From a phage: 64,000 bases of DNA. The DNA is taken from NCBI GenBank assembly GCA_014685065.1, contig GCA_014685065.1_4092.2; one strand, written 5' to 3'. Shown one piece after another: positions 13,524 to 57,638 of this stretch; position 1 is the first letter of the stretch, and each line of letters begins with the position of its first letter. Position numbers and translations under genes: made by a program. Under the pieces are notes generated by a model. That model was not told the origin of the DNA. It was given only the letters and a program-made list of their open reading frames with translations, and ran no database searches.

Positions 13524-14165
13524 ATGACTAAGCAAGAAATATTCAAAACTTTAATTGACATTTTGCGTCCATCAAAAACTCGTTGTGCGATGGAGTTTGA
13601 TATTCCTTATGCTGAACGCGTAATCTTTCCACAAGTTAAAGCTGCTGGACTTACTTTGCTTGGAATGGGGATGTACTCTGTAGTAGTTGAACATAAAAAC
13701 TATCCTGGACGAGCATTTAAAGTAACCACTTCACGCTGGGATGGTTTTCGTGCTTATGCAAAGTACTGCATTGAAAACGCAGGAACCAAGTTTCTTCCAG
13801 TGATCTACAGTGCCAACGAACAAGGAAACTTTGGATGGTATGAGATGGACAAGTACTATCCTATAATTAAACAAAAAAATAATTATGATGACTTTGTTAG
13901 TACTAAAATTGGAGATTTGTATTCGTATGCACATGCTGGTCAGTACGCAACTTCAGTGAATGATATGCGTGGAAATTCTGAAGAGATTGCTATTGCAACG
14001 GTCGCTGCTAACATCATGAAAGAGTTTCACGGGCGTTTTGTACCAGACATTCATTCAAGTAATGTAATGATGGATAAAGATGGGAATGTATTCATTACTG
14101 ATCCTCTTTCGTGTGATGTGCGTAGAGAAATACCAATTACTGAAGAAGATCCAGTTTTTTATTGA
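13524..14165 (+). CDS. protein-kinase-like fold protein (atypical mini-kinase)
   Basis: Gly-loop-like LGMGMYSVVV, AFKV, catalytic-loop-like DIHSSNVMM, ITDP; start set to ATG 13524 after AGAGGA. Confidence 0.5.
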   Translation: MTKQEIFKTLIDILRPSKTRCAMEFDIPYAERVIFPQVKAAGLTLLGMGMYSVVVEHKNYPGRAFKVTTSRWDGFRAYAKYCIENAGTKFLPVIYSANEQGNFGWYEMDKYYPIIKQKNNYDDFVSTKIGDLYSYAHAGQYATSVNDMRGNSEEIAIATVAANIMKEFHGRFVPDIHSSNVMMDKDGNVFITDPLSCDVRREIPITEEDPVFY

Positions 14166-14226
14166 CAGAACTGATGTTCTGATGTATTCTTAATAAACCA
14201 TAAAAATTGCGGTAAAGGATAAAATC

Positions 14227-14508
14227 ATGCGTTCATTTGAAAACTTAATAGGTAAGCATCTTTTATCTGAAATTGATGCAGACGTTAAAGAATTATCCAA
14301 ATCAAAAAGTTACATTCATTTGGATGAACTGTTTGTTAAGTACGGTGAGATTGGTTTTAAATCATTATTTGTTTTTACTATGAAAGTACATAGTTTAAAG
14401 TACTTCGATTTGAGTGCTAAAGATGGTGAACCGAATCTATATTACATGTATTACCTTAAGAACAAAGATGAAGCTAATACATTACTCTCTGAATATATAT
14501 TGGGGTAA
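14227..14508 (+). CDS. hypothetical protein
   Basis: RBS AAGGA before ATG. Confidence 0.5.
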   Translation: MRSFENLIGKHLLSEIDADVKELSKSKSYIHLDELFVKYGEIGFKSLFVFTMKVHSLKYFDLSAKDGEPNLYYMYYLKNKDEANTLLSEYILG

Positions 14509-14510
14509 AA

Positions 14511-14849
14511 ATGGAACAATATTTTGAATTAATAAACAAAGTATCATTTTATGTAGTATCTTTGGTTTGGGTGTATTATATGTTTTGCTACATTATTGCA
14601 TTCTTCCGATACACTACTTTATATGAACGTATCTACTATGATGCCCCAATTTCATTCTTGATGTTTTGTGCATGTACGTGGGGAATATTAGAAGTACTGA
14701 TATGTGGGTATAGTACTGATGAATTAAATCTGGTATCGGTCTTGACTGGGTTTTCATTTGTTGTTATGATAGCTGCCGTTCCAGTATGGTTGTTCTTTGT
14801 ACTAGTTCATCGCATTGATATATGGCGTTCTAATATCCCTGAAAAGTAA
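14511..14849 (+). CDS. small membrane protein, paralog family T
   Basis: 2-3 TM helices; shared F(R/K)Y..L..R.Y motif and basic C-terminal tail NIPEK. Confidence 0.55.
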   Translation: MEQYFELINKVSFYVVSLVWVYYMFCYIIAFFRYTTLYERIYYDAPISFLMFCACTWGILEVLICGYSTDELNLVSVLTGFSFVVMIAAVPVWLFFVLVHRIDIWRSNIPEK

Positions 14850-14852
14850 GGA

Positions 14853-15200
14853 TTGGTAATGATTTATTACACTAACATGTTTGCCTATGCTGTTGCTTGC
14901 ATTTACATTGTTTACTTCTTATTCGGTGGAGTACTGTGCTTCTTTAAGTACAAAACATTGTTCAACCGAATGTACCCAAATCATCCAATTGTAGTTGTAC
15001 TTTTGATTCTTTCAGTTTCTCAAATAATCGTTGAAACTACAATGGGTATCAGTAGTGTACATTATAGTTTTGGCACTATAGTAATTATTACTATGCTTAT
15101 TGCATACATTTTAGTACTTGGATATGGTATCTTTGGTAATATTGGTATGAAAATGTATCATCGAATTAAAACATTACGTGATAATCTACCGGAGCGTTGA
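14853..15200 (+). CDS. small membrane protein, paralog family T
   Basis: same architecture; tail NLPER. Confidence 0.55.
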   Translation: MVMIYYTNMFAYAVACIYIVYFLFGGVLCFFKYKTLFNRMYPNHPIVVVLLILSVSQIIVETTMGISSVHYSFGTIVIITMLIAYILVLGYGIFGNIGMKMYHRIKTLRDNLPER

Positions 15201-15201
15201 T

Positions 15202-15546
15202 ATGTATAATTTGAACCTAATCTCATATATTATAACAACACTGTTTACATTCTATGCCTTTGTTGGTATAATCCTACTGTACTTTAAATTTTATAAAGTG
15301 TTTAACCGTTTCTATCCTTCAATGGAGAATGAGTTTTTCTTTGTGTTGTACGTATGTTACACATTAATGGCTACATGTTTCACTGTAGCCGATGGTGTCA
15401 TCGGCATTAAAACTGCTTCCCCAAATGGTAGTACGCTGGTTGCATTTATTCTTACTGGATTCCTTGCAACTTATATTGCCTTCATTACAACATGGTCAGT
15501 GGTTGAATTTCTCTTGCGACTACGAAAGAATATGCCGAATCGATAG
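15202..15546 (+). CDS. small membrane protein, paralog family T
   Basis: ATG 15202 after GGAG; tail NMPNR. Confidence 0.55.
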   Translation: MYNLNLISYIITTLFTFYAFVGIILLYFKFYKVFNRFYPSMENEFFFVLYVCYTLMATCFTVADGVIGIKTASPNGSTLVAFILTGFLATYIAFITTWSVVEFLLRLRKNMPNR

Positions 15547-15555
15547 GAGACATAT

Positions 15556-15810
15556 ATGTTTGCGTTGCGTAATAAAAACACTAAAGAATTATTATGTATT
15601 GATACCGTATGGGATTGTGCGGGATCAACTACAGTTCTTGAAGAAGGAACTGGATATTGCGTGTTTGTTGTACATGATAGGAATGAACTCGAATTATTAC
15701 TTGCTGAGTTCAATGCTGGTGGTAATCCTAACTGTACTGAATACCCTGAGATTATCAATCCAGCACCACCAGGCTCTTATGAAATTCTACAACTGTGGGA
15801 GTTGAAGTAA
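15556..15810 (+). CDS. hypothetical protein
   Basis: RBS GGAGA before ATG. Confidence 0.5.
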   Translation: MFALRNKNTKELLCIDTVWDCAGSTTVLEEGTGYCVFVVHDRNELELLLAEFNAGGNPNCTEYPEIINPAPPGSYEILQLWELK

Positions 15811-16190
15811 TGCGTCAAATGCACAAAGTAACCGAGCTAAACAAGCGTCTGGTTAAACAATCAATGTTCGAGGATAAAGAGTCTTATTATAACTTTAAAC
15901 GTGCAGTAGAGGCTGCTATCCACATTCAGAAGCTTAAAGAACGTGGTTGTATTATTCTGGAAAATGGTTCGGAAGTTGTAACGGATGACTTTAGTGTAGC
16001 GTTTGATGTTTCACCTGACGGGACGCTATCAATGCCCCGCTTAGGAACTGGAAACATGACTGTTTGGGTTGGCTTCACTATGGGGAATGTACCTGGTACT
16101 GTGTACGTAGATGATGCAGAATTGAAAGACAGTTTCAAAAACTTATCTTATCTTGAACCACAATACGCACATGAAATGAATTTATTTTGA
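15810..16190 (+). CDS. hypothetical protein
   Basis: ATG 15810 overlapping previous stop (TAATG). Confidence 0.5.
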   Translation: MRQMHKVTELNKRLVKQSMFEDKESYYNFKRAVEAAIHIQKLKERGCIILENGSEVVTDDFSVAFDVSPDGTLSMPRLGTGNMTVWVGFTMGNVPGTVYVDDAELKDSFKNLSYLEPQYAHEMNLF

Positions 16191-16191
16191 G

Positions 16192-16249
16192 TTGACAAAC
16201 ACATTCAGTACTGTATAATGCTTATCAAGGGGATGAACTTCTCATCCCT
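16192..16249 (+). promoter_or_regulatory. promoter (TTGACA-16-TGTATAAT) plus 5' stem-loop GGGATGA-ACTTC-TCATCCC
   Basis: TTGACA 16192-16197, TATAAT 16214-16219, hairpin about 16228-16249. Confidence 0.6.
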
Positions 16250-16266
16250 ACAATCGAGGAACTACC

Positions 16267-16821
16267 ATGATTACTTTTAAGAAAACTGCTAACCACATCC
16301 ATGAAATCTACATTAACGGTCACAAAGCTGGCCTTCTTCGTTTACTCGCCCATCACCCTGATGCTACCGTATCTGATAATGAACCTAAAGATTGGCGTGT
16401 CTTTTTCTTTGGAAAGTACAGTGATTTTCAAGTATCAAACCTGAAGAACATTCGTTCAGTATGCACGTTAACTGAAATTAAAGAAAAGTTAGCACAAGCA
16501 TTGAAAACTAATCCAGATGGTGTTCTTCCACCTGATAACTTTGTAGAGAAAGGTTATGCCTTAGCTCATTTCAAAGATGGTACTATTCAATCTATCAGTA
16601 CTGAATATGAATATCATTGGACTGAGTACTTCACTTATGGTTCGAGTAATACATTGATGGATTCACGTAGTAAATTGGAAGAAGTACTGACTCGTATGAA
16701 TGAACGCGAGCGTCAGTTATATGACAAACCAGAAATGTGGAGTTCAACTTACATTGACCGTATTGACTATGTTATTATGACTCCAATCTTTGACACTGCT
16801 TACTATGATTCTTTGAAATAA
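16267..16821 (+). CDS. hypothetical protein
   Basis: RBS GAGGA; 184-aa ORF. Confidence 0.55.
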   Translation: MITFKKTANHIHEIYINGHKAGLLRLLAHHPDATVSDNEPKDWRVFFFGKYSDFQVSNLKNIRSVCTLTEIKEKLAQALKTNPDGVLPPDNFVEKGYALAHFKDGTIQSISTEYEYHWTEYFTYGSSNTLMDSRSKLEEVLTRMNERERQLYDKPEMWSSTYIDRIDYVIMTPIFDTAYYDSLK

Positions 16822-16832
16822 GGATAACTTAT

Positions 16833-17009
16833 ATGAAACTACGTACTCGTAATCGACTGATGGATGCACTGTACAATGAACAGCTTTCACTGAATGAAGT
16901 GAAGCGTCAGTTAATGTACACATATCAGTTTCCCGCTCGCATTGCAAAACAACGTGCTAAAGAATTGCTGAAAGAAGCAATCGAGTACTGGGAATCTGAT
17001 TCGTACTAA
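16833..17009 (+). CDS. small basic hypothetical protein (58 aa)
   Basis: RBS AAGGA, ATG 16833; followed by ACGTGA-tatg-TCACGT hairpin. Confidence 0.35.
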   Translation: MKLRTRNRLMDALYNEQLSLNEVKRQLMYTYQFPARIAKQRAKELLKEAIEYWESDSY

Positions 17010-17048
17010 TATTACGTGATATGTCACGTTAATTAAGTGAGGCGATAA

Positions 17049-17300
17049 ATGAAAATATTATTAGTTCTAATACTACTAATAGTTTTACCATTTACTTTAG
17101 TATCCCCTGGACTTGCATGGAATGTATTTGTGTACTTAGTATGTACTATTGTAGTAAATGGTATCTTGTTCTTAGTTCTATTCATAAATGGAATAGGACA
17201 CGGTGGAGGATGGACCAGTACTGCTGATATTGTACATAAAACCACTATGTCTTTATTTGTAATGTGGAATTTATTCTGGACTTGGTTTGTGTTCTTCTAA
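17049..17300 (+). CDS. small membrane protein
   Basis: RBS GAGG; hydrophobic throughout. Confidence 0.45.
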   Translation: MKILLVLILLIVLPFTLVSPGLAWNVFVYLVCTIVVNGILFLVLFINGIGHGGGWTSTADIVHKTTMSLFVMWNLFWTWFVFF

Positions 17301-17308
17301 TTAAAAAT

Positions 17309-17680
17309 ATGAATATAGATTTGAAAGGTGCAACACGAACTGTTATCCTCATTGGGGAATATGCTATCAAGATTCCAACCTTTAAAAGTTGGAAGCTATT
17401 CTTAACAGGGATGATAGCTAACCTCAATGAACGTTCGTGGATGCAGTACTCCAATCGTAGTGATAGTAGTATCTGTCCTACGTTGTGGTCATCATGTACT
17501 GGACTAGTAACTGTACAGAAACGTTGTAAGCCAGTTCAACATAGGGGTTTATTTTGGGTGGAGTTGTGTGCTTTAGCATTGAATTCAGAGTTAAGTACTG
17601 ACTTCTTCTATTCAGATGCGAAGCCAGAAAACTTTGGGTATCTGGGTGGTAAGTTAGTTAAACTTGATTATGGAGATTAA
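17309..17680 (+). CDS. minimal protein-kinase-like protein
   Basis: GEYAIKIP (VAIK-like), SDAKPENFGY (catalytic-loop-like), KLDYGD (DFG-like) at C-terminus. Confidence 0.5.
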   Translation: MNIDLKGATRTVILIGEYAIKIPTFKSWKLFLTGMIANLNERSWMQYSNRSDSSICPTLWSSCTGLVTVQKRCKPVQHRGLFWVELCALALNSELSTDFFYSDAKPENFGYLGGKLVKLDYGD

Positions 17681-17681
17681 T

Positions 17682-17951
17682 ATGTACGCACTGTATAATA
17701 AAGAAAAGAAACGATTTGCTAAGGTTGAAATTTCGATTGATACATTTGATATGTTGGAGTACTGTATTGTAACTGACCTATATGCTAACTTGTATTACGT
17801 TCTTGATGACGTATCAGTACTGCAACGATTGCTTGAGAATTCCAAAAGTCAATGCCAGGGCATCCATGATGGTTCATCTTATGAAACACCTGAGTGTTCC
17901 TACGGCTATCTGGACGGGTATGAGATTGTGAAGTTGGGGATCATTGAATAA
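17682..17951 (+). CDS. hypothetical protein
   Basis: ATG 17682 after GGAG. Confidence 0.45.
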   Translation: MYALYNKEKKRFAKVEISIDTFDMLEYCIVTDLYANLYYVLDDVSVLQRLLENSKSQCQGIHDGSSYETPECSYGYLDGYEIVKLGIIE

Positions 17952-17954
17952 AGA

Positions 17955-17990
17955 AAAGGGTTGACTTCGGTCAGCCCTTTTTGCTATAAT
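17955..17990 (+). terminator. bifunctional terminator/promoter module, long form
   Basis: AAAGGGTTGACTTCGGTCAGCCCTTTTTGCTATAAT; TTGACT 17961-17966, TATAAT 17985-17990. Confidence 0.7.
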
Positions 17991-18018
17991 TATTTCATCA
18001 AGACGAGAGGATGAATAC

Positions 18019-18534
18019 ATGACACGCATTAACTTAGTACACGTTAAAGAACTTGCTGACCAACATCTGATGGCTGAATATCGTGAACTCCCACGTGTAT
18101 TTGGTGCTGTACAAAAACACGTTCAAGCACGTAAGCGTGTACGTGATTTCAAAATTAACAGTACTTATCTGTTAGGTTCAGGTCATGTGACATTCTTTTA
18201 CGACAAGTTGCTGTACTTACAGAAGCGTCATATCGATATTGTTAACGAATGTTTGCGTCGTGGTATGAAGATTCAAAACACTGAAGTAAACGACATTAGC
18301 GGCTTCCCTGCTGAGTTTTGTAATGACTACGTACCAACGGAGTCAGAGATTAAAATGTCTCGTGATCGTTTGATTGAGAAGCTCCAGATGAAGCCTACGT
18401 GGTATAAGTTTACTGATGTTGAATGTCCACAGTACGTTAAAGATATGCAGAACGTAAGTAGTAAGAACGAATCTAGTACTGATATGTTCGACGAAATTGA
18501 AGAACAAATCAAAGATGAAATGAATAATTATTAA
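18019..18534 (+). CDS. denV: endonuclease V (pyrimidine-dimer DNA glycosylase), T4 DenV homologue
   Basis: N-terminus [39 protein letters not shown]...[10 protein letters not shown] is near-identical to T4 endonuclease V as recalled from memory. Confidence 0.85.
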
Positions 18535-19236: not shown

Positions 19237-19272
19237 AAAGGGTTGACTTCGGTCAGCCCTTTTTGCTATAAT
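19237..19272 (+). terminator. bifunctional terminator/promoter module, long form
   Basis: same 55-bp unit as at 17955 and 20651; TATAAT 19267-19272. Confidence 0.7.
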
Positions 19273-29013: not shown

Positions 29014-30189
29014 CTATTCTGGTAAAATCATTTTCTTCATTTTAACTTGTTGTGTACCTGGACTCTGTTCCTGAAACATAGACCCGTTACCACACCAGTA
29101 CACCTCATTAGTCCCTACTAACGCGTATAACACACCAGAACCACCTTGTACTGAAAATGCATTAACATCTGGTGCAACATCCATATCCTCATATTGTACC
29201 TGGTGGTAATAAGATCTTTCTGATGCAGTAGTAACAGGCCAACCAAGAGGAACACCACTACCACATGTATAAAGTTTACCATTCTGTGTCATTGCCATTA
29301 TAAAATAATTCAAACTGTGATTGTTCATCGACCCAGCATCTGGTATAATACCACTAATTGCAGGAGTGGTACTAAATGGACTCATGATAATAGTAGTGTC
29401 GCCATACCCTATTCCTAAACAATAATCAGTGTTTTTTCCAGCAGTATATACATTAATCTTATTTCTATTGGATGTAAGTACTGAAGTGGTTTCAGGAGTA
29501 CATGAAATACCAATAACTGTTCCAGATATATCAGTACTTACTGTAAATGTGGATAGTTTAGATGAACTTGAACCTAGGTTATAACTTGCATTATTACCAC
29601 ATCTGTAATATTGTCCATTTTTTACAAAATGGAAAGCACCACCCGACTGTGTTCCTGCGATTAAAGTAACACCCGTGTTAATCAAAATAGGTGTTGATTT
29701 TATTCCAGTAACACCCAATTCACCCCCAGCATTACGGCCTATCCCATATAAGTTACCATCACTTAACAGAATTAACAAAGAACCATTGGATGCGGTAGTT
29801 TCGGTAGAAGCTATATCTTGAACTGTAGTAAGGCTTGGAATTGTAGACAATATAGATGTAATATTAGTCCATCCGGGAACAGGTGATGCAGATACACCGA
29901 CATAGTTCATTTGCCCTGCTAAGTAAAATTCTCCGTCAGTCGTAAGTATAATTGTCCCTGCGAATAAACACCAAACATTAGAAACTTTATATGGACACTG
30001 TACCCACCCATTTTGTACATACTCCGTACTATTATTTCCTAGCCTATAATGTGCACCACTTCCACGTAGATATAAGTTACCACTATCAAATAACATACCC
30101 ATATGTGATGACGATGTACTAATCTTTAATACACCAGAAGGTGCAGGTTTAATATTTCCATACTTAACCATTCTTGCAAAAGGTAACAT
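29014..30189 (-). CDS. RCC1-like beta-propeller protein with MLPF leader
   Basis: start set at MLPFARMVKYGNI preceded by AAGGAGG; track N-terminal extension rejected. Confidence 0.7.
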   Translation of the reverse strand: MLPFARMVKYGNIKPAPSGVLKISTSSSHMGMLFDSGNLYLRGSGAHYRLGNNSTEYVQNGWVQCPYKVSNVWCLFAGTIILTTDGEFYLAGQMNYVGVSASPVPGWTNITSILSTIPSLTTVQDIASTETTASNGSLLILLSDGNLYGIGRNAGGELGVTGIKSTPILINTGVTLIAGTQSGGAFHFVKNGQYYRCGNNASYNLGSSSSKLSTFTVSTDISGTVIGISCTPETTSVLTSNRNKINVYTAGKNTDYCLGIGYGDTTIIMSPFSTTPAISGIIPDAGSMNNHSLNYFIMAMTQNGKLYTCGSGVPLGWPVTTASERSYYHQVQYEDMDVAPDVNAFSVQGGSGVLYALVGTNEVYWCGNGSMFQEQSPGTQQVKMKKMILPE

Positions 30190-30259
30190 ATTTCCTCCTT
30201 TATTCATTATACTATATTTAATCAAAAAGAAAAGCCAGTACTCTGTACTGGCCTATATT
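30190..30259 (-). promoter_or_regulatory. cassette intergenic module
   Basis: GCCAGTACTCTGTACTGGC hairpin + T-run, TATAAT, AAGGAGG, ATG. Confidence 0.65.
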
Positions 30260-30997
30260 TTATACTGAATTGTTAGGATAATATCTCCCATTTCCCCATA
30301 TTATTCGCACAGCACCACCACCAGCAGCCGTATAAGAAGAATTATCCCATATACTACCACCACCACCATACATCTTACCAGCACCACCACTACCAGCACC
30401 ACCATTATATGAACCACCGTAGCTACCACCAATACCATTAGCACCTTGAACAATGATACCAGTACCACCACCCGTACCAATGAACGAGGTATTATAGAAT
30501 GTACCACCGCCCCCGCCGCCGCCAGCACCATTTTCACCAGTGATTGCATCTCCGTTACCACCTTTACCTGTGTAGCCACCAGCACCACCACCAATGACTG
30601 CACCACCACTTACACCAGTATTGCCACCATTACCACCACCATCATTAATAGCGTTAGCAGCTTTTCCACCTAGTCCACCAACCGTATATGCACCAGTGAA
30701 GCTAACACATAGTTTTTCAGTTCCACGATATAAACCGTTTTCAACTGGTGTAGTAGTGTTGGTATGCGTAAGAGAAACACTTAAGTACTCACCACTAGTA
30801 ACCGGAATATTATTACGCCACGATAAGCCGCCGCCAGCACCACGTTGACCACCCGGCGAAATAACACATACTGATATTTCGGTAACGCCAGCAGGAACTG
30901 TAAATTGTGTTGTTCCTATTGTCGTGATTAATTGTTCACCATGTGGCTTATATTCAATTTCATTCCCGTACTTAATCATTCTTCCAAAAGGTAACAT
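30260..30997 (-). CDS. glycine-rich protein carrying the same MLPF leader (not a propeller)
   Basis: MLPFGRMIKYGN then long GGxGG tracts. Confidence 0.65.
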   Translation of the reverse strand: MLPFGRMIKYGNEIEYKPHGEQLITTIGTTQFTVPAGVTEISVCVISPGGQRGAGGGLSWRNNIPVTSGEYLSVSLTHTNTTTPVENGLYRGTEKLCVSFTGAYTVGGLGGKAANAINDGGGNGGNTGVSGGAVIGGGAGGYTGKGGNGDAITGENGAGGGGGGGTFYNTSFIGTGGGTGIIVQGANGIGGSYGGSYNGGAGSGGAGKMYGGGGSIWDNSSYTAAGGGAVRIIWGNGRYYPNNSV

Positions 30998-31069
30998 AAT
31001 TCCCTCCTTTATTCATTATAATATATTTAATACAAAAAGAAAAGCCAGTACTGAGTACTGGCTATTATA
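30998..31069 (-). promoter_or_regulatory. cassette intergenic module
   Basis: hairpin GCCAGTACTGAGTACTGGC 31044-31062 + T-run, TATAAT, AAGGAGG. Confidence 0.65.
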
Positions 31070-32257
31070 TTATAATTGTCGGGGTGTATCTAGTACATAT
31101 CTAGTTGTACTAGGACCACCATCATCATAAGTTCCGGTTGAATATATATTTTTCATATCAGTTAGAAATGTACGATATGAACCTCTATATATTTTTATTT
31201 TATCATACATAGAATATGTTATTTGTGTAGGCATTGGACATGCAGTAAACTTACCAACAGTTGCACTAGTACCAATACCCAATGAACCAGCATAACTACT
31301 GGCATTTAAACCAGTTGCATATACACCAGTACTCGTAATTAGTATACTAGATTGTGGTGGGTATCCAGTATGAATTGAATACAAAGTACCGGGTGGTAAC
31401 GTCGTACTGTTATTTCCTAAAACTCCATTAACAGAGCTAGATGTAGTGTTATTTCCCCATGCCCCATTATTAGCTAACCCACCGACAAGGAACTGACGTG
31501 CTCCTGTATTTGGATTTTCAACTAAAGCACTTACTGCACCAGTTGAGCATCCTGTGTATTGTAACGTTTTTGTGTATGTTGTATTTGGTTGATATAAAGT
31601 ATATTCATTATATGAAGTCCATGTAGTCGCGGAACTTATACCGGATGTAACACCACCAATATATAAATTATTTTGTTTATCAAACAACAATACACAGTTA
31701 TTTGTTGACTGTATTTGTGCAATATCAACATTAGGTGTGACCGCTTTTACAAATGAACCATCGGTTATTTCATAAGTAGTTCCTGTACCATCTGCGAATT
31801 GTCTAGCACTGTTCCACCCTGTACTCCATATTGTATTATTATCCATTAACACAGTAAACCACGTAGTACCTCCATACATCTGTTTAATTGAAGTACTTGA
31901 ACTTTGTGTGTACAAATTTTGAATATATTGGTTATAACTTAAAAACGTAGTAGTACTAGTTGATAAACCAATATGACTACCATATCCACAGTAATAATAA
32001 TTTGAGTCATTGTCTTTTACTAATAAAGTTCCTTGTGTAAGCCAGCAATCGTTAACGTTTTCTCTAATTAATGTCCATGATTTTAATGCAGTGTTGTTTC
32101 CTCTACCGAATTTCCCAAAACTATTATTCCCACGTGCATATAGTTGACCATCCGTATACAGAACCACAACATCTAAATCAGTTGGGATTATTTTCTTAAT
32201 TTGAAGTGGTACTGGGGCAATATTCCCATAATTCATCATTCTTGCAAAAGGTAACAT
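31070..32257 (-). CDS. RCC1-like beta-propeller protein with MLPF leader
   Basis: MLPFARMMNYGNI; blades such as LYARGNNSFGKFGRGN. Confidence 0.7.
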   Translation of the reverse strand: MLPFARMMNYGNIAPVPLQIKKIIPTDLDVVVLYTDGQLYARGNNSFGKFGRGNNTALKSWTLIRENVNDCWLTQGTLLVKDNDSNYYYCGYGSHIGLSTSTTTFLSYNQYIQNLYTQSSSTSIKQMYGGTTWFTVLMDNNTIWSTGWNSARQFADGTGTTYEITDGSFVKAVTPNVDIAQIQSTNNCVLLFDKQNNLYIGGVTSGISSATTWTSYNEYTLYQPNTTYTKTLQYTGCSTGAVSALVENPNTGARQFLVGGLANNGAWGNNTTSSSVNGVLGNNSTTLPPGTLYSIHTGYPPQSSILITSTGVYATGLNASSYAGSLGIGTSATVGKFTACPMPTQITYSMYDKIKIYRGSYRTFLTDMKNIYSTGTYDDGGPSTTRYVLDTPRQL

Positions 32258-32328
32258 AAATTCCTCCTTTATTCATTATACTATATTTAATACAAATAAG
32301 AAAGCCAGTACAGAGTACTGGCATTAAA
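32258..32328 (-). promoter_or_regulatory. cassette intergenic module
   Basis: hairpin 32304-32322 + T-run, TATAAT, AAGGAGG. Confidence 0.65.
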
Positions 32329-33477
32329 TCATTGTATAAATGACATATCAACTTCTGTATAACTAAGAATGTTTTGTCCAGCAATTCCCCCCATTACTAC
32401 CATAGCATACCCACAATAATATAATTGCTCAGTGTCCGTAAGTATAAGTGAACCAGATGGAGTGCGTACCAAATTACACGAACTATTAAACGAAGTATAC
32501 GAAGGAGTATATGAGTACTGATTAATATTATTACCAACACCTAATTGACCAAATCCATTCGACCCAGATGCGTATAGAACTTCATCACCTTTAGCTATAT
32601 GTGATGCCATGTTACTAACACACGTATATAGAGTATAAACTCCTGAACTCAATAATGTCGGAGTTTTGTATTGTATATCGGTAGATGAAGAAGTACCACC
32701 TGTGCCAAATTCGTTCCCGTATTGTGCACCGAACTGTTTACCACAAGCGTACAAATTATTATCCGATTTAATAAAAAATGTACTCTGATAACTTACATCA
32801 AAATCTATAACATCTGAAGCAATCATCGTCACCCCAGTAATAGAAGTTTGATTACCTGTACCTAACTGATAGTAATAGTTAAAACCACAACCCCATAAAG
32901 TATTATCTTCTTTTAGGTATATGTTACCAACTGCCTTTTTAACCGAAGTTATAGTATCTACCCTTTTGAATGTGTTAAAAGAATTAATGTTTGTACCATC
33001 ACCAAATGATGATAGGTTCGAGTTATTGTTAACTCCACAACAATACAACGTACCATCGTTTGTTATCAAATTCACCTTCATATCATTAAAACTACTCATG
33101 TATTTTATATCAGAAACATTAATACCACCTGATGTTATCCACGTAGTACAGTCCGTCCACAAAGTTTTTGTATCAGTTACACCAGTGAATGCCTTCGTGT
33201 TACCAGTGATAAAAACTTTTCCAGTACCTTTCTCTTCATACAATTGACAACTACTACTGTTATCTTCCAATAGAACTCGTTTAACATTCTCTGCACAAAG
33301 AATAAATTTACTCGATGCTACACCTGTTCCAGTACCCCAATTCGTCGCAGAAGATGCATACAACTTATTAGTATAAGTATCATGAAGATACATAGAATCA
33401 CTTGAATATATTTTAAAACGCCTATCCTTACCAGGGGCAATATTCCCATAATTCATCATTCTTGCAAAAGGTAACAT
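32329..33477 (-). CDS. RCC1-like beta-propeller protein with MLPF leader
   Basis: MLPFARMMNYGNI; LYASGSNGFGQLGVGN. Confidence 0.7.
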   Translation of the reverse strand: MLPFARMMNYGNIAPGKDRRFKIYSSDSMYLHDTYTNKLYASSATNWGTGTGVASSKFILCAENVKRVLLEDNSSSCQLYEEKGTGKVFITGNTKAFTGVTDTKTLWTDCTTWITSGGINVSDIKYMSSFNDMKVNLITNDGTLYCCGVNNNSNLSSFGDGTNINSFNTFKRVDTITSVKKAVGNIYLKEDNTLWGCGFNYYYQLGTGNQTSITGVTMIASDVIDFDVSYQSTFFIKSDNNLYACGKQFGAQYGNEFGTGGTSSSTDIQYKTPTLLSSGVYTLYTCVSNMASHIAKGDEVLYASGSNGFGQLGVGNNINQYSYTPSYTSFNSSCNLVRTPSGSLILTDTEQLYYCGYAMVVMGGIAGQNILSYTEVDMSFIQ

Positions 33478-33548
33478 ATTTCCCTCCTTTATTCATTATA
33501 CTATATTTAATACAAATAAGAAAGCCAGTACAGTGTACTGGCATTATA
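33478..33548 (-). promoter_or_regulatory. cassette intergenic module
   Basis: hairpin 33524-33542 + T-run, TATAAT, AAGGAGGG. Confidence 0.65.
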
Positions 33549-34688
33549 TTATTTCCACGGTAGAAGTGAATCAGGAACCCTTGTTGGTACAGTAGTTGAA
33601 GACATTCCAGTAAGATTGGGTACACCACATGTGTATAAATTATTATATTCGTCAACTAACATCGTATAAGAATAGCTCTTACAAAAACTACTAAGATTAC
33701 TACCTTCTAATGCAGTAAGATCCATTTCAGCGAATGATGTTATATACATATCAGTTGTACCAATACCACATTGACCATTTGAATTAAGGCCACATGAAAA
33801 TAACTTATTATTATTATTAATTATACAGGATGGTCCGGTAAGGTTTGTCCCAAGCTCACCCACCAACTCCACTTCTCCTTGGAATGATAAATTTGGAATT
33901 AATGTACTCATTGGGGCTACTGACCTATTTCCTGTACCTGCTTGTCCATAGTCGTTAATAGATGCAACTTTAACATTACCATCATTAAGAAATATATAAG
34001 AAGTTTCATTTGTATTGACTGCTTTAATTGCATTACTAATCGAAGTATCTTGTGTAAATGTGAGCAAGTTTTGTGTCGTCGTTCCTGATACAAACGTTCT
34101 ACCTGCATACCAATATGAACCATCATTTAGTACTAATCCAGTACTATATATTGCACAACCAGCACTGATAACATTTTCTATTGTACTATAGGTGAATCGT
34201 GAAACGCTTGAAGTTGATCCATTCCCAAAAACACCACCAGTACCAGCACCACAGTAGAACCACTTTCCATTTTTTAAAAATACACGCATACACGAAGATA
34301 TCACAACACTATCAATATCATCTGCACTGACACCGAAATCAGTAAAGTTCTGTGTTATATCAACCCAAACGCCGTTAGTGTTTGAAGATAGTATTGGAAT
34401 AACAGTACGTCTACCAGTGTACCAAATAGTACCATCTTTCTTTATAGCAATTGTTCCTTGTACCCCACCCCAATATCGTGTAACATTTGAGTTGACAAGA
34501 GTCCATTCAGTTGAAGAGTCCAATGAACCATTACCACTTTGTCCATATGCTGAAGAACCAAACCAATATAGATTGCCATTTGTGTGTAAATAAAATTTGG
34601 CATCAGCAGAACATTGTAACCTGTTTTTAGGTAGAATCAGTTCAGGTGCGATATTCCCGTACTTAACCATTCTTGCAAAAGGTAACAT
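33549..34688 (-). CDS. RCC1-like beta-propeller protein with MLPF leader
   Basis: start set at MLPFARMVKYGNI; LFSCGLNSNGQCGIGT, YWFGSSAYGQSGNGS. Confidence 0.7.
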   Translation of the reverse strand: MLPFARMVKYGNIAPELILPKNRLQCSADAKFYLHTNGNLYWFGSSAYGQSGNGSLDSSTEWTLVNSNVTRYWGGVQGTIAIKKDGTIWYTGRRTVIPILSSNTNGVWVDITQNFTDFGVSADDIDSVVISSCMRVFLKNGKWFYCGAGTGGVFGNGSTSSVSRFTYSTIENVISAGCAIYSTGLVLNDGSYWYAGRTFVSGTTTQNLLTFTQDTSISNAIKAVNTNETSYIFLNDGNVKVASINDYGQAGTGNRSVAPMSTLIPNLSFQGEVELVGELGTNLTGPSCIINNNNKLFSCGLNSNGQCGIGTTDMYITSFAEMDLTALEGSNLSSFCKSYSYTMLVDEYNNLYTCGVPNLTGMSSTTVPTRVPDSLLPWK

Positions 34689-34758
34689 ATTCCCTCCTTT
34701 ATTTGTTATACTATATTTAATACAAATAAGAAAGCCAGTACAGTGTACTGGCATTATG
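34689..34758 (-). promoter_or_regulatory. cassette intergenic module
   Basis: hairpin 34734-34752 + T-run, TATAAC, AAGGAGGG. Confidence 0.65.
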
Positions 34759-35868: not shown

Positions 35869-35876
35869 ATTCCCTC

Positions 35877-37079: not shown

Positions 37080-37128
37080 ATTTCCCTCCTTTATTTGTTA
37101 TATCATATTTACCACAAAAAGAAAACCC

Positions 37129-37157
37129 TTGACATCCTTTCTGGACTCATTTATAAT
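37129..37157 (+). promoter_or_regulatory. consensus sigma70 promoter TTGACA - 17 nt - TATAAT for tandem array A; divergent from cassette
   Basis: TTGACA 37129-37134, TATAAT 37152-37157; RBS AAGGAG before ATG 37181. Confidence 0.75.
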
Positions 37158-37180
37158 AGAAAAAATATAAGGAGAAATTC

Positions 37181-37426
37181 ATGAACAATGTAATAGATCA
37201 CTACCAAGCACTTAGCCAAAGTACTAAGAACTATATGAGCTACATGAACGCAGAAGATTTCGCATTCTTCCTCTCAAAATTCTGTGCAATCAATACCCTC
37301 AAAAAAAGTACTACCCCAACAAGTGCACTTATGTTGAATTGCTTTATAGAGGACATCTTTGAGGGACTACAAAACCCTGACGAAAGTAAACGATTCATTA
37401 ACCTTTTAGTACTGGCATCTATATGA
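37181..37426 (+). CDS. array A paralog (divergent, 81 aa)
   Basis: first gene after promoter; C-terminal LLVLASI resembles member at 38468. Confidence 0.55.
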   Translation: MNNVIDHYQALSQSTKNYMSYMNAEDFAFFLSKFCAINTLKKSTTPTSALMLNCFIEDIFEGLQNPDESKRFINLLVLASI

Positions 37427-41250: not shown

Positions 41251-41379
41251 AGTACAGGAATGTTCACGTTTAATCAAGAACGTAGCAGTACTGATATGCC
41301 ACTAAGTAGGCAGAGGAAGTCTGCCGTACTTTGTAGTTTCCAAGCTCCTTTTCCATTTTGCAAATTACATCAAATGTAA

Positions 41380-41420
41380 TCAAAAGTAATCAAAAGTAAT
41401 CACGCAATGATTAGTACTGA
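41380..41420. repeat. AAAGTAATCA x3 at 10-bp spacing, plus inverted copy
   Basis: aaatgtaatcaaaagtaatcaaaagtaatcacgcaatgattag; helical-turn periodicity. Confidence 0.6.
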
Positions 41421-41446
41421 ATTATTACTTTCACCTTAATTTCAAT

Positions 41447-41485
41447 TACCCCTTTACCCTTCGGGGTAAAATTCAATTACCCCTT
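41447..41485 (+). repeat. TTCAATTACCCCT direct repeat flanking hairpin TTTACCC-ttcg-GGGTAAA
   Basis: read directly. Confidence 0.5.
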
Positions 41486-41678
41486 GAGGCTCCAGCAAAA
41501 AGTTGGTTAGTACTCCATCCTAAATCTCGATCCTAAAAATTTTGGAGTACCTATGAAATAAAAGTTGGATCTTCGAAAGTTGAAATTTACGTTGGGACAT
41601 ATAGGATTTGTGGGATATAATGAGTTTTGTAGCGATACAGATTATACGATTTCAGTACTGAATAATGAAAGAAAGCTA

Positions 41679-41706
41679 TTGACATTATGATTCAGTACTG
41701 TATAAT
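41679..41706 (+). promoter_or_regulatory. sigma70-like promoter (TTGACA-16-TGTATAAT) inside ORF-free region
   Basis: TTGACA 41679-41684, AGTACTGTATAAT to 41706; no ORF over about 20 codons downstream. Confidence 0.55.
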
Positions 41707-41711
41707 GTTCT

Positions 41712-41820
41712 ACATAGAGAGATGAGTTGCTGCGAACAATTCATTTACTCTACCTCCTGTCGTGAGACAGTACAGAAAAGATAGTTCCTCCTGTGGTGGT
41801 ACATCTTTTTGAACCTCATA
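41712..41820 (+). ncRNA. candidate small non-coding transcript (or 18-codon peptide)
   Basis: starts after promoter at 41679; runs to T-tract CATCTTTTTG about 41803-41812; only ORF is 18 codons. Confidence 0.25.
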
Positions 41821-41890
41821 TGAAAATCGTAATAACAGTACTGATATTAACAGAATGGTGTCAGTACTGATTTTAATCTAAAGCATTATG

Positions 41891-41910
41891 CCACCAGCTT
41901 GTGCTGGTGG
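41891..41910 (+). promoter_or_regulatory. strong stem-loop CCACCAGC-ttgt-GCTGGTGG
   Basis: perfect 8-9 bp GC-rich stem; no T-run. Confidence 0.4.
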
Positions 41911-42075
41911 ATTCCCTCTAACAGTATTCAGTACTACATGATAGTCTTCATCCTCCTACAGTAACAGTGAGGGCTATTGTGGCAGTACTGAATACTCCCT
42001 TTCAAAAGATAGATCTATGGTATAGTACTGACGGATTTTGGGCGTAGTAACCCTAGGTTGAATTTAGACGTAGAG

Positions 42076-42215
42076 ATGTCTAGACCTCCAGATGGCTGGA
42101 AGTAAAGATGGCTATCCCTCTAGGCGGCTGGATGGCTAGATTTCTAGATGGCTGTACTGCTAGACGTTTGGACGGCTAAACGGCTAGATGGTTACACGTC
42201 TGGATGTATAGACGG
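42076..42215. repeat. iteron-like cluster of (A/G)GATGG(C/T)T and GACGGCTAA direct repeats
   Basis: at least 8 copies in about 140 bp with 15-25 bp spacing. Confidence 0.65.
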
Positions 42216-42382
42216 CTAAATCAAAATTTTTATTTTATTTTTTCCAATAGTTCCCCTACCGCGTGGGGATGGTTTCCCCGCAGTATCTGGAGTTAGATTT
42301 TTCTGAATCTGGAATCATTATCCCCGTTTTCGCCTGGTATGTCAACCGTCTGGATGAATAATTTTAAAAAATAATCTAGTAC

Positions 42383-42435
42383 TGAATTTTGGGCGTAACT
42401 ATGCACCCGGTGGGCTTGAGTCTTTCTCGACTTGA
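42383..42435 (+). repeat. repeated element ACTGAATTTTGGGCGTAA...GCACCC...TTTCTCG, copy 1
   Basis: second copy at 42596-42650; shorter third copy near 42028. Confidence 0.55.
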
Positions 42436-42595
42436 TGAAACTATTATACAGTACTGAAAAAATAAAGCAATACCCTAAACGCAAAAAGTTTTAATTAATT
42501 TGCTTGCCATCCTGGGGCGTACTATGGTACTATATTTCAGTACTGAGAAAGTGCTATGACCTGCTAAGGTGCGGGAGTGTATCCTTTTTAAATTT

Positions 42596-42650
42596 ACTGA
42601 ATTTTGGGCGTAATTCCGCACCCCCAGGGGTATCCGCTTTCTCGCGTCTA
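42596..42650 (+). repeat. repeated element, copy 2
   Basis: actgaattttgggcgtaattccgcacccccaggggtatccgctttctcgcg. Confidence 0.55.
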
Positions 42651-42899
42651 TGTAGTAATTATACGCTTTTTCGGTGCTGAGTCAATAGCTAAAAACAAAA
42701 TAATTGAAAATAATTTAACGCGTTTAAACGGCCCGTAAAGCCCTGGTTAGCTGGTGGCGGTGCAAATGTATAGCTTAGGTGTATTAATGCGTTAGAAAGC
42801 GGCTGAGGCCGTTTTATGGTGTATAGTACTGATTCAGTACTGAAAGATAGTTCCCCTATATAGAAAGAAAACTATTTTAAAAGTATTTGTAGAAAGTAC

Positions 42900-42960
42900 T
42901 TGCAAAGTATTGGGAAAGGTGTAGAATGTTTTACATCGAGACGGGGGATACGCTCCCGAC
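42900..42960 (+). promoter_or_regulatory. PeSL-like module: promoter (TTGCAA ... TAGAAT) + leader stem-loop
   Basis: agtacttgcaaagta ... gtagaatgttttacatcgagacgggggatacgctcccg. Confidence 0.55.
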
Positions 42961-42984
42961 TCACTTTTAAAAGAGATTAAAACG

Positions 42985-43347
42985 ATGGCGACTCAAATCA
43001 ATACTATCATGCTTAACCTGGTTTCTTTCCGTGAAGAGATGAAAGATCTTCCCGCTGAGACTGTACGGATTCACATTGCAGCTTATCGGGAATTGATTGC
43101 AATGCTGCCGCTTAAGCGTGAACAGTACGCCGCTACTGCAATGCTGGACGCAATGATACATAAGATGATCCAGACTGATTTAACGATGGCTTATCAGTAC
43201 ATGGGCGAAATGTTTGCAGTGTATAGCAAGCCAGTACCAGGAATGGAAAGTACAGAAGTATTGCACGGCTTAAACTTAAAACAAGATGCATGGGATAATA
43301 TGCCTCGTTTCCTGGTATGGGCTGACAGCGGCAAGATTTACGAATAA
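42985..43347 (+). CDS. hypothetical protein
   Basis: first gene of GC-richer block; RBS AAGAG. Confidence 0.55.
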   Translation: MATQINTIMLNLVSFREEMKDLPAETVRIHIAAYRELIAMLPLKREQYAATAMLDAMIHKMIQTDLTMAYQYMGEMFAVYSKPVPGMESTEVLHGLNLKQDAWDNMPRFLVWADSGKIYE

Positions 43348-50304: not shown

Positions 50305-50310
50305 AAAAAG

Positions 50311-50342
50311 TGGTTGACTTCGGTCAGCCATTTTGCTATTAT
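50311..50342 (+). terminator. bifunctional terminator/promoter module
   Basis: TGGTTGACTTCGGTCAGCCA + TTTTGCTATTAT. Confidence 0.65.
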
Positions 50343-54926: not shown

Positions 54927-54947
54927 CTAACAAAGAGAGAAATTAAA

Positions 54948-55223: not shown

Positions 55224-55226
55224 GTA

Positions 55227-55286
55227 TTGACAAAGTATCTTAGTACTGTATAATAGTTTACATCAAGGCAGGGGAATGGTTCCCCT
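55227..55286 (+). promoter_or_regulatory. PeSL-like module
   Basis: TTGACA 55227-55232, TATAAT 55249-55254, hairpin AGGGGAATGGTTCCCCT. Confidence 0.65.
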
Positions 55287-55310
55287 CCTAACTAAAAGAG
55301 AGAAATTAAA

Positions 55311-55634: not shown

Positions 55635-55656
55635 TAGAATCCATTTAAAGTACTAT

Positions 55657-55685
55657 TTGACATTGCCCAGATAGTACTTTATAAT
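55657..55685 (+). promoter_or_regulatory. promoter TTGACA-17-TATAAT flanked by AGTACT
   Basis: agtactatttgacattgcccagatagtactttataat. Confidence 0.55.
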
Positions 55686-55733
55686 AGACTCTAACTTGTA
55701 GTACTAATTAACTTAACTAATAGGATGTACACC

Positions 55734-56129
55734 ATGATTACTAAATTCTTCGCTACCCGTGAACAAGCTCGCATCGTTGCTCGTGAAGAAGGTGAAACAT
55801 TTAAAGACATGGGCAAAGATGCACCGAAAGGACAACGCTGGGCGGTACAGTTCAAAGAGATCTCTGATATTGTGAATTCACCTGAGCCTGTACTTACTGA
55901 AGCAGAACTGAAGAAAGCTCAAGAACTGGCTGAAGTACTGAACGCTCAAGATGACTTCTTGGAAGGTTCTGATATTGAAGTTACAGTTAACGCAAATGCA
56001 TGGACTCACGCGGATCACCTGGCAAACCTTAAGCGTCCAAGTGAACTGATTCGTAACCAGAAAGAGATCCGTCATGACCGTAAAGGAAACCGTGTAACAG
56101 TATACAGTAAACGCCGCCAGGTTATCTAA
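55734..56129 (+). CDS. hypothetical protein, paralog of 43763 gene with insertion
   Basis: FATREQARIVAREEGETFKDMG ... RHDRKGNRVTVYS. Confidence 0.55.
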   Translation: MITKFFATREQARIVAREEGETFKDMGKDAPKGQRWAVQFKEISDIVNSPEPVLTEAELKKAQELAEVLNAQDDFLEGSDIEVTVNANAWTHADHLANLKRPSELIRNQKEIRHDRKGNRVTVYSKRRQVI

Positions 56130-56150
56130 TAACTTTGCAGTACTAACAAC

Positions 56151-56176
56151 ACGGCGGGAATAGTTCCCGCCTTTTT
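56151..56176 (+). terminator. intrinsic terminator
   Basis: GGCGGGAATAGTTCCCGCC + T6. Confidence 0.7.
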
Positions 56177-56192
56177 TATAGGATAAACTAAA

Positions 56193-56447
56193 ATGATGAA
56201 GGTACAACTATCTAAAGATAATATCTTGCGGGTACACTATAAAGCACCACAGAGAATCATCACAAAGGCCGTACAGCTTGCTAATGAGTTTATTAATGGT
56301 AGTCTATTACCCAGGAAGTTAAGCAACGGGAAACTACGTGTTATCGATGTAGACACTAACAATAGAATAGTAATTGAGAGTACTGGAAAAATTAATCTAT
56401 ATGAACACCAACAATACAATAAAAAAATAAAACTAATATCACGTTGA
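56193..56447 (+). CDS. hypothetical protein
   Basis: RBS AGGA. Confidence 0.5.
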   Translation: MMKVQLSKDNILRVHYKAPQRIITKAVQLANEFINGSLLPRKLSNGKLRVIDVDTNNRIVIESTGKINLYEHQQYNKKIKLISR

Positions 56448-56471
56448 CAGTACTCAATTGTTTTAGTATTA
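56444..56471 (+). promoter_or_regulatory. promoter TTGACAGTACTCAA ... TATTAT (homologous to 56722)
   Basis: two genes with unrelated products share this promoter/leader. Confidence 0.5.
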
Positions 56472-56503
56472 TGTATCTATACCAACACAGAGAGAGAAAC
56501 AAA

Positions 56504-56722
56504 ATGAAATTATCTAAAATCGAAAAGAAAACTATTGATGAAGCAGTGAAGCACGGTTATACCTTTCGTAATGATTCACACTTCACCAGTTTTCAACAGG
56601 GAAACCGTACCATCAAAAAACTCATTGATAAAGGTTTACTCACTAAGGTTGATAACGGGAACGGTGTAGAATATCAACCGACAGAAGACGCATTATCACT
56701 AAAGAAATATTCTATTATCTAA
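56504..56722 (+). CDS. hypothetical protein
   Basis: ATG 56504 after AGAGAGA; track N-terminus is a leader read-through. Confidence 0.5.
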   Translation: MKLSKIEKKTIDEAVKHGYTFRNDSHFTSFQQGNRTIKKLIDKGLLTKVDNGNGVEYQPTEDALSLKKYSII

Positions 56723-56750
56723 TTGACAGTACTCAAATGTTTTAGTACTA
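56722..56750 (+). promoter_or_regulatory. promoter TTGACAGTACTCAA ... TACTAT
   Basis: homologous to 56444. Confidence 0.5.
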
Positions 56751-56779
56751 TGTACGCATACCAACACGGGGAAAACAAA

Positions 56780-57022
56780 ATGATTACTTTAGAAAAACGT
56801 ATCAAAGAGACTACAACGCTGGTGGAACTGTTAACCGTTCTTAAATGCCGGGTAACTCCATTCAGTACACCGGACTTTATCAACATGGTGGACGTTAACG
56901 GTCGCTATCGTATTGCGGTCGAACAAGGTACGGCAAAAGTATTCAGTACTAAAAATACGCGTGAAGTATTCCACGCAGTAAGTACGAAAAAAGTAGTTGC
57001 CATTGATAGTAAAGTACTGTAA
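56780..57022 (+). CDS. hypothetical protein
   Basis: ATG 56780 after GGGGAAAA. Confidence 0.5.
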   Translation: MITLEKRIKETTTLVELLTVLKCRVTPFSTPDFINMVDVNGRYRIAVEQGTAKVFSTKNTREVFHAVSTKKVVAIDSKVL

Positions 57023-57053
57023 TATAGTTTCATTAACTCAAGGAGTCAACACA

Positions 57054-57638
57054 ATGCGTAACTATACTAAATTCATCCGTTCACTTCATGCAATGGAAAC
57101 CAACAAAGAGATCCTTTCAGCTTGTCGGTTAGCTGGACTGGAGATCGTCGGTGCGGGTTCTTCCCGTATTGTATTCGCTTTAAATGATCGGTTAGTGATT
57201 AAGGTCGCGAATTGTGATGCGGGTGTAGAACAAAATGAAACTGAATGTAAGGTATGGAATTTTTTAGATTATGACCGTCCGCACCTTAAACAGTTCTTTG
57301 CCAAGGTGCATATGCATTTATGCGATCCTGATAATCTGTTTATTGTTATGGATCGTTTGAGTACTGCAAGCAAAGGCAGTGTAAAGCACGTAACCGCATG
57401 TAATGAGTTAAAGTACAATATTAAACGTAACACTATTGAACGCCATCACCATTTCGCTGATGCTCTCAATCACGTTGATGATACATTATCCACACTAACG
57501 ATAAGAGATATCAGAAAACAGAATATCGGCCAGGATCGCAACGGCTTGATTAAAGTACTTGATTACGGTTTAACCCGCAATATCTGGAATCAGTACTATA
57601 AAAAACGTGATGTTAACGCGATAACTATAACACGATAA
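57054..57638 (+). CDS. protein-kinase-like protein (atypical Ser/Thr-kinase fold)
   Basis: Gly-loop VGAGSSRIVF, VIKVA, catalytic-loop-like IRDIRKQNIG, DFG-like VLDYG; ATG 57054 after AAGGAG. Confidence 0.55.
   Translation: MRNYTKFIRSLHAMETNKEILSACRLAGLEIVGAGSSRIVFALNDRLVIKVANCDAGVEQNETECKVWNFLDYDRPHLKQFFAKVHMHLCDPDNLFIVMDRLSTASKGSVKHVTACNELKYNIKRNTIERHHHFADALNHVDDTLSTLTIRDIRKQNIGQDRNGLIKVLDYGLTRNIWNQYYKKRDVNAITITR

Follow-up and report, generated by a model that had tools for sequence, protein, structure and literature searches.

How much of a protein kinase can be lost from a phage protein that still phosphorylates the proteins of its host? The question is raised by three short genes, here called K1, K2 and K3, in contig GCA_014685065.1_4092.2 of assembly GCA_014685065.1, a stretch of 64,000 nt of phage DNA that was analysed at its full length and is referred to below as the window. 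A preliminary description of the window had reported three divergent mini-kinases in one accessory region. The genes are genuine and belong to an Escherichia coli jumbo phage, a 121Q-like Asteriusvirus; they probably encode three kinase-fold proteins that lack the C-terminal lobe (C-lobe), catalyse phosphotransfer, are made early in infection and act on host proteins. They represent two lineages: K1 corresponds to the kinase domain of the phage T7 gp0.7 kinase (T7K), and K2 and K3 are distant relatives within PHROG 4301. The 123-residue K2 form belongs to a very large family that neither Pfam nor NCBIfam models cover; as kinases, K1 and K3 have previously been reported or annotated in close relatives.

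Kinase signatures of the three proteins, and predicted folds of K1 and K2

Over positions 13000-18500, the identity of the window to the Escherichia jumbo phages CRJP21, G17, Sharanji, 121Q and SP27 amounts to 98.9-99.6%, and over positions 56000-58500 its identity to 121Q is 97.7%; the Asteriusvirus relatives have genomes of about 350 kb. The 121Q counterparts are gp205 for K1 (annotated 'protein kinase') and gp215 and gp308 for K2 and K3 (both 'hypothetical'). All three open reading frames (ORFs) lie on the plus strand (Table 1), and the motifs quoted in the preliminary description are all present in the order expected of kinases: LGMGMYSVVV, AFKV, DIHSSNVMM and ITDP in K1; EYAIKIP, SDAKPENFGY and KLDYGD, followed directly by the stop codon, in K2; and VGAGSSRIVF, VIKVA, IRDIRKQNIG and VLDYG in K3. 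The motif residues are invariant columns of each family alignment, and the three proteins match PHROG families at 4.7e-92 (K1, phrog_15752), 8e-44 (K2) and 1.6e-42 (K3), the latter two matching the same family of unknown function, phrog_4301; the motifs are therefore not a product of chance. Hidden Markov models built from all of the family alignments detected no further kinase-family member among the six-frame ORFs of at least 45 amino acids, so that, for this window, three is the full number.

The relationship of K1 to T7K is the clearest. As well as phrog_15752, K1 matches two more PHROGs annotated as kinases, and an hhalign comparison of a profile of 23 K1 homologues with T7 gp0.7 gave a probability of 98.5% (E 2.9e-15, 169 aligned columns), with K1 residues 34-210 aligned to residues 61-230 of the 359 in T7 gp0.7. 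Invariant across the 23 homologues are G47, G49, K66, D175, H177, N180 and T192-D193-P194. Searched against PDB sequences, the K1 family profile gave a best kinase match of E 0.28, which is too weak, and a fold search was therefore needed. The AlphaFold2 model of K1 is confident (predicted local distance difference test score, pLDDT, 92.9; predicted template modelling score, pTM, 0.88), and Foldseek returned 189 PDB matches at E<=1e-3, of which the 50 listed comprise 49 protein kinases and one aminoglycoside phosphotransferase, all of them kinase-fold enzymes. Fold prediction, the test on which the preliminary description had staked its reading, thus gave kinase folds both for K1 and, as described below, for K2.

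K1 reaches its C-terminus 20 residues past D193 of the T-D-P-L motif, and the shut-off domain of T7 gp0.7 is absent, residues 243-359 of that protein having no counterpart; K1 is therefore a T7K member at the level of the domain, with a different architecture. The shut-off domain is also reported to have been lost from the jumbophage T7K homologues of G17 and Munch, and the jumbophage homologues, described there as of unknown function and promiscuity, are reported to have a less conserved third position in the DPV motif (PMC13645617); the DPL of K1 fits this looser third position. K1 is already in print as a jumbophage T7K homologue (PMC13645617), and the description of phage Sharanji names one T7-kinase homologue, WNN14432.1 (PMC11895373). 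The 121Q record starts the gene at an upstream ATG, 13491, which lies inside the -10 element of the adjacent promoter-like site; ATG 13524 is preferred, because the homologues are 213 amino acids long and start with MTK, and because AGGA stands 8 nt before it.

K3 is nearer to the classical Ser/Thr/Tyr kinases. Pfam models run on K3 alone matched residues 49-188 below threshold (PK_Tyr_Ser-Thr at 5.8e-4 and Pkinase at 2.1e-3), and at E<=1 the profile of its 12-member family matched 251 different sequences in the PDB; those listed, 60 in number, are all protein kinases, headed by MKK4 (2e-4), with the catalytic loop (HRD) and the DFG motif in register. Residues G35, S36, S37, R38, K50, E64, D152, N157 and D170 are invariant in the K3 family, and the protein ends 22 residues past D-Y-G, or 24 past D170. 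Orthologues are present throughout the Rak2-like jumbo phages, and those of K64-1, Munch, Muenster, Turkey3 and Turkey5 bear the label 'protein kinase'; in the Muenster record the annotators noted an HHpred match of 99.9% probability, and this match and the PDB profile matches together uphold the kinase-like reading of K3. Besides its T7-kinase homologue, Sharanji is listed as having 'another protein kinase' (PMC11895373), the accession of which is that of the K3 orthologue. A PADLOC search with K3 gave only weak generic kinase matches, to PD-T4-6.

Two metagenomic proteins carry K3-like kinase units in tandem, four in P0062 (923 amino acids; locus L015 204-2975) and three in P0106 (782 amino acids), and in some of these units the position of the catalytic-loop Asn is occupied by His. 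The tandem arrangement recalls polyvalent proteins.

K2 is the shortest form and stops at D-Y-G, its last residue lying one position beyond that motif and three beyond D120. It has no match in Pfam, NCBIfam or PADLOC (NCBIfam has no family for any of the three proteins), and it is 'hypothetical' in 11 of the 11 Asteriusvirus records listed in a tblastn sample. The AlphaFold2 model, built on a shallow alignment, has a pLDDT of 90.3 (86.6-90.3 over five models) and a pTM of 0.80. It starts at the N-terminus with three strands, which are followed by a long helix that bears E41, two further strands, a helix, the catalytic loop and a beta-hairpin, with nothing after beta-8. The 50 Foldseek matches listed for this model, Lpg2603 and TTK among them, are all protein kinases, with probabilities of 0.97-1.00. 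A profile of the close K2 family found no match among PDB sequences; a broader profile of 137 K2-type representatives weakly matched TTK (E 0.006), aligning SDAKPENFG...DYG with SDLKPANF...DFG. The catalytic residues K21, E41, D103, N108 and D120 are all kept in K2 and are invariant in its close family, and the catalytic residues of K2 and K3 align to their counterparts in TTK and MKK4. A search of longer K2 and K3 relatives with Pfam models for fused domains gave nothing informative.

Of the 'three divergent mini-kinases', the number of genes stands and the implied number of independent lineages does not. In addition to their shared PHROG, the K2 and K3 families match one another in hhalign (E 1.1e-5), and the profile of 137 K2-type representatives, which contains no K3 sequence, matches K3 at 1.6e-10; neither BLASTP nor hhalign found a sequence link between K1 and K2 or K3, and K1 forms a separate family. 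To call the set unusual was likewise an overstatement for K1, which is published, and for K3, which is annotated in relatives; it is K2 that sits in an unnamed family.

The K2 family and its predicted chemistry

An exhaustive search with the K2 profile recovered 1,749 clusters, defined at 50% identity, with E<=1e-3; 667 of them were recovered at E<=1e-10. Across the 137 representatives the median length is 124 amino acids (10th-90th percentile 118-146), and G7, R10, K21, E41 and D120 are invariant in 137 of 137. Homologues are present as accessory genes in very diverse phages: in T4-like phages such as Bas45, where the gene lies between ipI and the tRNA cluster, in Kuravirus/SU10-like phages, in Aeromonas, Erwinia and Klebsiella jumbo phages, in Pseudomonas siphoviruses and, at 45% identity, in Salmonella lambdoid prophages (L004, L005 3001-3372); two Erwinia phage records already label the homologue a kinase. 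The K2 family is very large and unnamed, takes the design of a phage kinase without a C-lobe to its extreme, and may be as small as a kinase can become.

A protein that ends one residue after D-Y-G, with another ORF (17682-17951) starting 2 nt further on, could be taken for the truncated pseudogene of a longer kinase, or for the front half of a gene, split or frameshifted, that the next ORF completes. This we regard as very improbable and already largely refuted. A length of 111-146 amino acids and an end 2-5 residues past the DFG Asp are the normal state of the family, seen in 112 of the 137 representatives and in unrelated phages, and the AlphaFold2 model of K2 is a compact and confident fold; a pseudogene or fragment is ruled out by a short length that is conserved family-wide. 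Nor does ORF 17682-17951 behave as a missing C-lobe or fusion partner: in four other contexts, the genes that come after K2 homologues do not resemble it, this ORF has a paralogue at 15556-15807 that is not beside a kinase, and the prophage homologues stand alone, with about 400 nt of non-coding cos region after them. We therefore treat K2 as a complete gene.

In the Salmonella prophages the homologue lies by itself between an Rz-like lysis gene and the terminase gene Nu1. This is a classic accessory ('moron') position, from which the gene could be expressed by the prophage and serve the lysogen instead of an infecting phage. When the Salmonella-prophage homologue was sought in complete E. coli genomes, the cos region alone was matched. 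In a 64-kb phage-like contig (L016, at 2159-2524 and 4001-4381), a K2 homologue lies four genes downstream of a Tad2-like gene of the anti-Thoeris family, which hints at an anti-defence neighbourhood. Upstream of K2 itself, a very hydrophobic ORF of 83 amino acids (17049-17300) ends 8 nt before the gene, and in an SU10-like phage contig a hydrophobic ORF of 36 amino acids (L006 2894-3004) overlaps the start of the K2 homologue, perhaps by coincidence.

What could proteins of this kind do? All three end 3-24 residues past the DFG-type Asp, and so have neither an activation segment nor helices alpha-F to alpha-I; each would consist of an N-terminal lobe (N-lobe), a catalytic loop and a DFG-type metal-binding motif. 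In the mechanism that we propose, Mg-ATP would be held by the Gly and Arg of the glycine loop, by the beta-3 Lys and its partner, the alpha-C Glu, and by the DFG Asp, and the catalytic-loop Asp, with Lys and Asn, would move the gamma-phosphate onto a hydroxyl group. As the substrate-binding lobe is missing, the choice of substrate should either be broad, as in T7K, or be set by a docking-partner protein. The proteins would be produced early, with host proteins as targets, either for takeover of the cell or for disarming its defences.

Several observations weigh against this reading. At E<=0.01 none of the 137 K2-family representatives matches PF00069 or PF07714, and two of the 137 have weak kinase-like matches; K3 falls below the Pfam gathering thresholds (17.9 vs 31.7 bits for PF00069, and 19.7 vs 23.1 bits for PF07714). 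K2 has none of the parts with which a classical kinase binds its peptide substrate. Its family's catalytic loop is not invariant, and one of the forms found, E-x-K-x-x-S, is unusual for phosphotransfer to protein hydroxyls. Because the strictly invariant residues are those that bind ATP and Mg, their conservation would be accounted for by nothing more than the binding or hydrolysis of ATP. With regard to timing, the promoters in Table 1 are consensus matches, and the total of such matches is not above that in shuffled controls.

The catalytic loop of the K2 family exists in two co-varying forms, D-x-K-x-x-N in 73 of the 137 representatives (K2 included) and E-x-K-x-x-S in 35, which suggests two chemically distinct subfamilies. 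ATP binding is the best-supported property of the family, since it is the ATP- and Mg-holding residues that never vary. K2, and perhaps K3, might then be an ATP-binding kinase fold that does not phosphorylate proteins, and acts instead as an ATPase, transfers AMP, or phosphorylates a small molecule (a nucleotide, a signalling molecule or an antibiotic-like compound), as some atypical kinase-fold enzymes do. We consider this unlikely: at +2 the K2 loop SDAKPEN has a Lys, as Ser/Thr protein kinases typically do, and this Lys is common to 115 of the 137 representatives, the links at the level of sequence lead only to protein kinases (TTK, CK1 and the MKKs), and T7K, a phage kinase without a C-lobe, phosphorylates proteins (PMC13645617). 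From the same three points we infer phosphotransfer to protein by K2.

The extreme reduction of the fold and the variation of the catalytic loop across the family would also suit catalytically dead, nucleotide-binding pseudokinase scaffolds that bind and block a host protein. For K2, K3 or both, this appears improbable: pseudokinases usually lose at least one canonical catalytic residue, whereas K2 and K3 retain the full set (Lys, Glu, Asp...Asn and DFG Asp), which is retained across hundreds of diverged clusters.

The boldest form of the proposal is that the K2 family is a self-sufficient active kinase, made of an N-lobe, one helix, the catalytic loop and DFG only, and thus the smallest protein kinase known. 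We put this forward tentatively, as a possibility that we would not yet back. If it is correct, the family represents widespread host-modifying phage enzymes, with two loop chemistries, that domain databases have missed; an active K2 would define the minimal catalytic core of the protein-kinase fold, and would offer a compact and easily expressed system in which to study how a kinase chooses substrates without a substrate-binding lobe. If K2 is inactive, the family is an abundant ATP-binding module of unknown role.

Genomic placement and transcription signals

The three genes are not in one accessory region, as the preliminary description had it, but in two locations. K1 and K2 are separated by 3.1 kb, and K3 lies 39 kb further on, in the equivalent of a terminal repeat: phage vB_Ec-M-J has an annotated direct terminal repeat of 21.5 kb, which maps to about 41305-61400 of the window, with K3 inside it, and the Muenster orthologue of K3 is likewise within a predicted terminal repeat. 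Because this part of the window is colinear with the vB_Ec-M-J repeat, the window spans a physical end of the genome. None of the genes neighbouring K1, K2 and K3 has a known function.

K2 occupies the fourth place in a five-gene unit that extends from the promoter match at 16192-16219 to the hairpin at 17955-17981, and K3 is the second gene of a two-gene unit (a layout taken from 121Q gp307-308) closed by a 12-bp hairpin. A repeated intergenic element (AAAGGGTTGACTTCGGTCAGCCCTTTT) combines a terminator-like stem-loop, with a -35 TTGACT in its stem, and a -10 box after it; there are seven copies in the window (Table 1), against 0 expected by chance. It is reminiscent of the promoter-stem-loop elements found between the early gene cassettes of T4-like phages. 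Given the predicted sigma-70-type promoters, the setting among small accessory genes and the position of K3 in the terminal repeat, the three proteins are most likely made early and act on host proteins. Such signals and positions would suit early transcription of the genes by the polymerase of the host.

Table 1. Positions of the kinase-like genes and of the associated features in the window
Feature	Position	Strand	Remarks
K1	13524..14165	+	213 amino acids; T7 gp0.7-family kinase domain without shut-off domain; orthologue of 121Q gp205
K2	17309..17680	+	123 amino acids; kinase-fold protein; orthologue of 121Q gp215
K3	57054..57638	+	194 amino acids; kinase-like protein; orthologue of 121Q gp308 and Sharanji WNN14351.1
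89-residue gene, phrog_8563	17682..17951	+	Begins 2 nt past the K2 stop; a neighbour, not a conserved partner
Terminator hairpin with -35 TTGACT in the stem, then TG-TATGAT (-10) 18 nt on	13460..13495	+	Immediately upstream of K1
Candidate promoter, perfect sigma-70 consensus TTGACA-16-TATAAT	16192..16219	+	Five-gene unit with K2; consensus match
Terminator/promoter hairpin	17955..17981	+	Closes the K2 unit
Sigma-70-like site TTGACA-17-TACTAT	56723..56751	+	Upstream of the two-gene unit ending with K3; consensus match
12-bp terminator hairpin with TTGACT, then TATTAT	57650..57685	+	Just after K3; variant of the repeated element
Copies of the hairpin/promoter element	7348-7374, 12382-12408, 13460-13486, 17955-17981, 19237-19263, 20651-20677, 50308-50334	+	

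Other features of the window were noted in passing. The neighbourhood of K1 and K2 contains three tandem paralogues of phrog_19285 (14511-15543) and two dispersed paralogues of phrog_8563 (15556-15807 and 17682-17948), none of which has a known function. The first 1.7 kb or so of the terminal-repeat equivalent (about 41305-43000) has no annotated gene in vB_Ec-M-J. On the minus strand, at about 25300-37300, there is an array of paralogues of about 380 amino acids that the 121Q annotation calls RCC1-like 'regulator of chromosome condensation'; the order and copy number of the array differ from those in 121Q, with a rearrangement of its blocks, and the window is the shorter of the two by about 2.9 kb.

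Comparison with known kinases

The best-understood counterpart is T7K, an experimentally proven, hyperpromiscuous anti-defence kinase with a kinase domain at residues 1-242 and a DFG-like DPV at 213-215 (PMC13645617). With DPV already at 213-215 of a domain that ends at 242, T7K is likewise without a C-lobe. K1 is a true homologue of T7K and of Autographiviridae homologues such as JSS1_004. K1 and T7K share the glycine loop, the FKV lysine, the D-x-H-x-x-N loop and a TDP DFG-like motif (DPL in K1, DPV in T7K), both kinase domains end about 20-27 residues past that motif, and both genes are early accessory genes, the timing of K1 being that predicted from its setting. Unlike T7K, K1 has no C-terminal DNA-binding shut-off domain, the part that steers T7K towards nucleic-acid-binding proteins. 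For K2 and K3, no relationship to T7K could be detected at the level of sequence (hhalign probability 3%), and for them the likeness is one of functional analogy only. By that analogy, early phosphorylation of host proteins, either broad or directed by a partner, is a plausible route to takeover or anti-defence for the proteins described here. Recent work showed that the T7 kinase, through mass phosphorylation, disarms many of the defence systems of bacteria, so that knowing which phages carry kinases, and of which type, bears on phage-host conflict and on the choice of therapeutic phages.

For K2 and K3 the closest architectural precedent is a group of polyvalent-protein kinases that have lost the whole C-terminal subdomain and kept the residues for ATP binding and phosphotransfer (Iyer et al. 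2017, PMC5512222). These kinases occur in phage and plasmid elements and in (pro)phages, some as stand-alone proteins, and have been proposed to act in the manner of the T7 kinase; the source of the group is elements from Verrucomicrobia-Chlamydia and from Bacteroidetes, and its markers are a Glu preceding strand 2, a Gln in the N-lobe's final strand and an insert that separates the catalytic His from the Asp (PMC5512222). Compared by description only, K2 and K3 fit this group in having lost the C-terminal subdomain with the active-site residues intact, and differ from it in lacking a catalytic-loop His (YSDAKPEN in K2, IRDIRKQN in K3) and in their G-x-[ST]-R glycine loop. Searches of the literature for an already described family of mini-kinases corresponding to K2 turned up the general precedent of PMC5512222 only.

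The minimal effector kinases OspG, NleH1/2 and HopBF1 and the archaeal RNA kinases Ark1/ArkI are the other obvious candidates for comparison. Their solved chains have 160-216 residues, against the 123 of K2, and no sequence match to any of them was found with the K2 and K3 profiles. Small kinases do match the K2 fold (Ark1, 7.1; OspG, 6.9; NleH1, 6.3; HopBF1, 6.3), but no more closely than ordinary kinases; the scores of generic kinases are higher, and K2 thus has no particular structural affinity to the small ones. Nor are these phage genes: OspG, NleH and HopBF1 are secreted effectors, and Ark1/ArkI are tRNA/RNA kinases.

Measured against the Ser/Thr/Tyr kinases themselves (PF00069/PF07714), K2 and K3 have the N-lobe topology, the beta-3 Lys, the alpha-C Glu, a loop of the D-x-K-x-x-N type and D-[FY]-G. 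They differ in having no activation segment, no APE motif and no helices alpha-F to alpha-I, and their scores remain below the Pfam thresholds.

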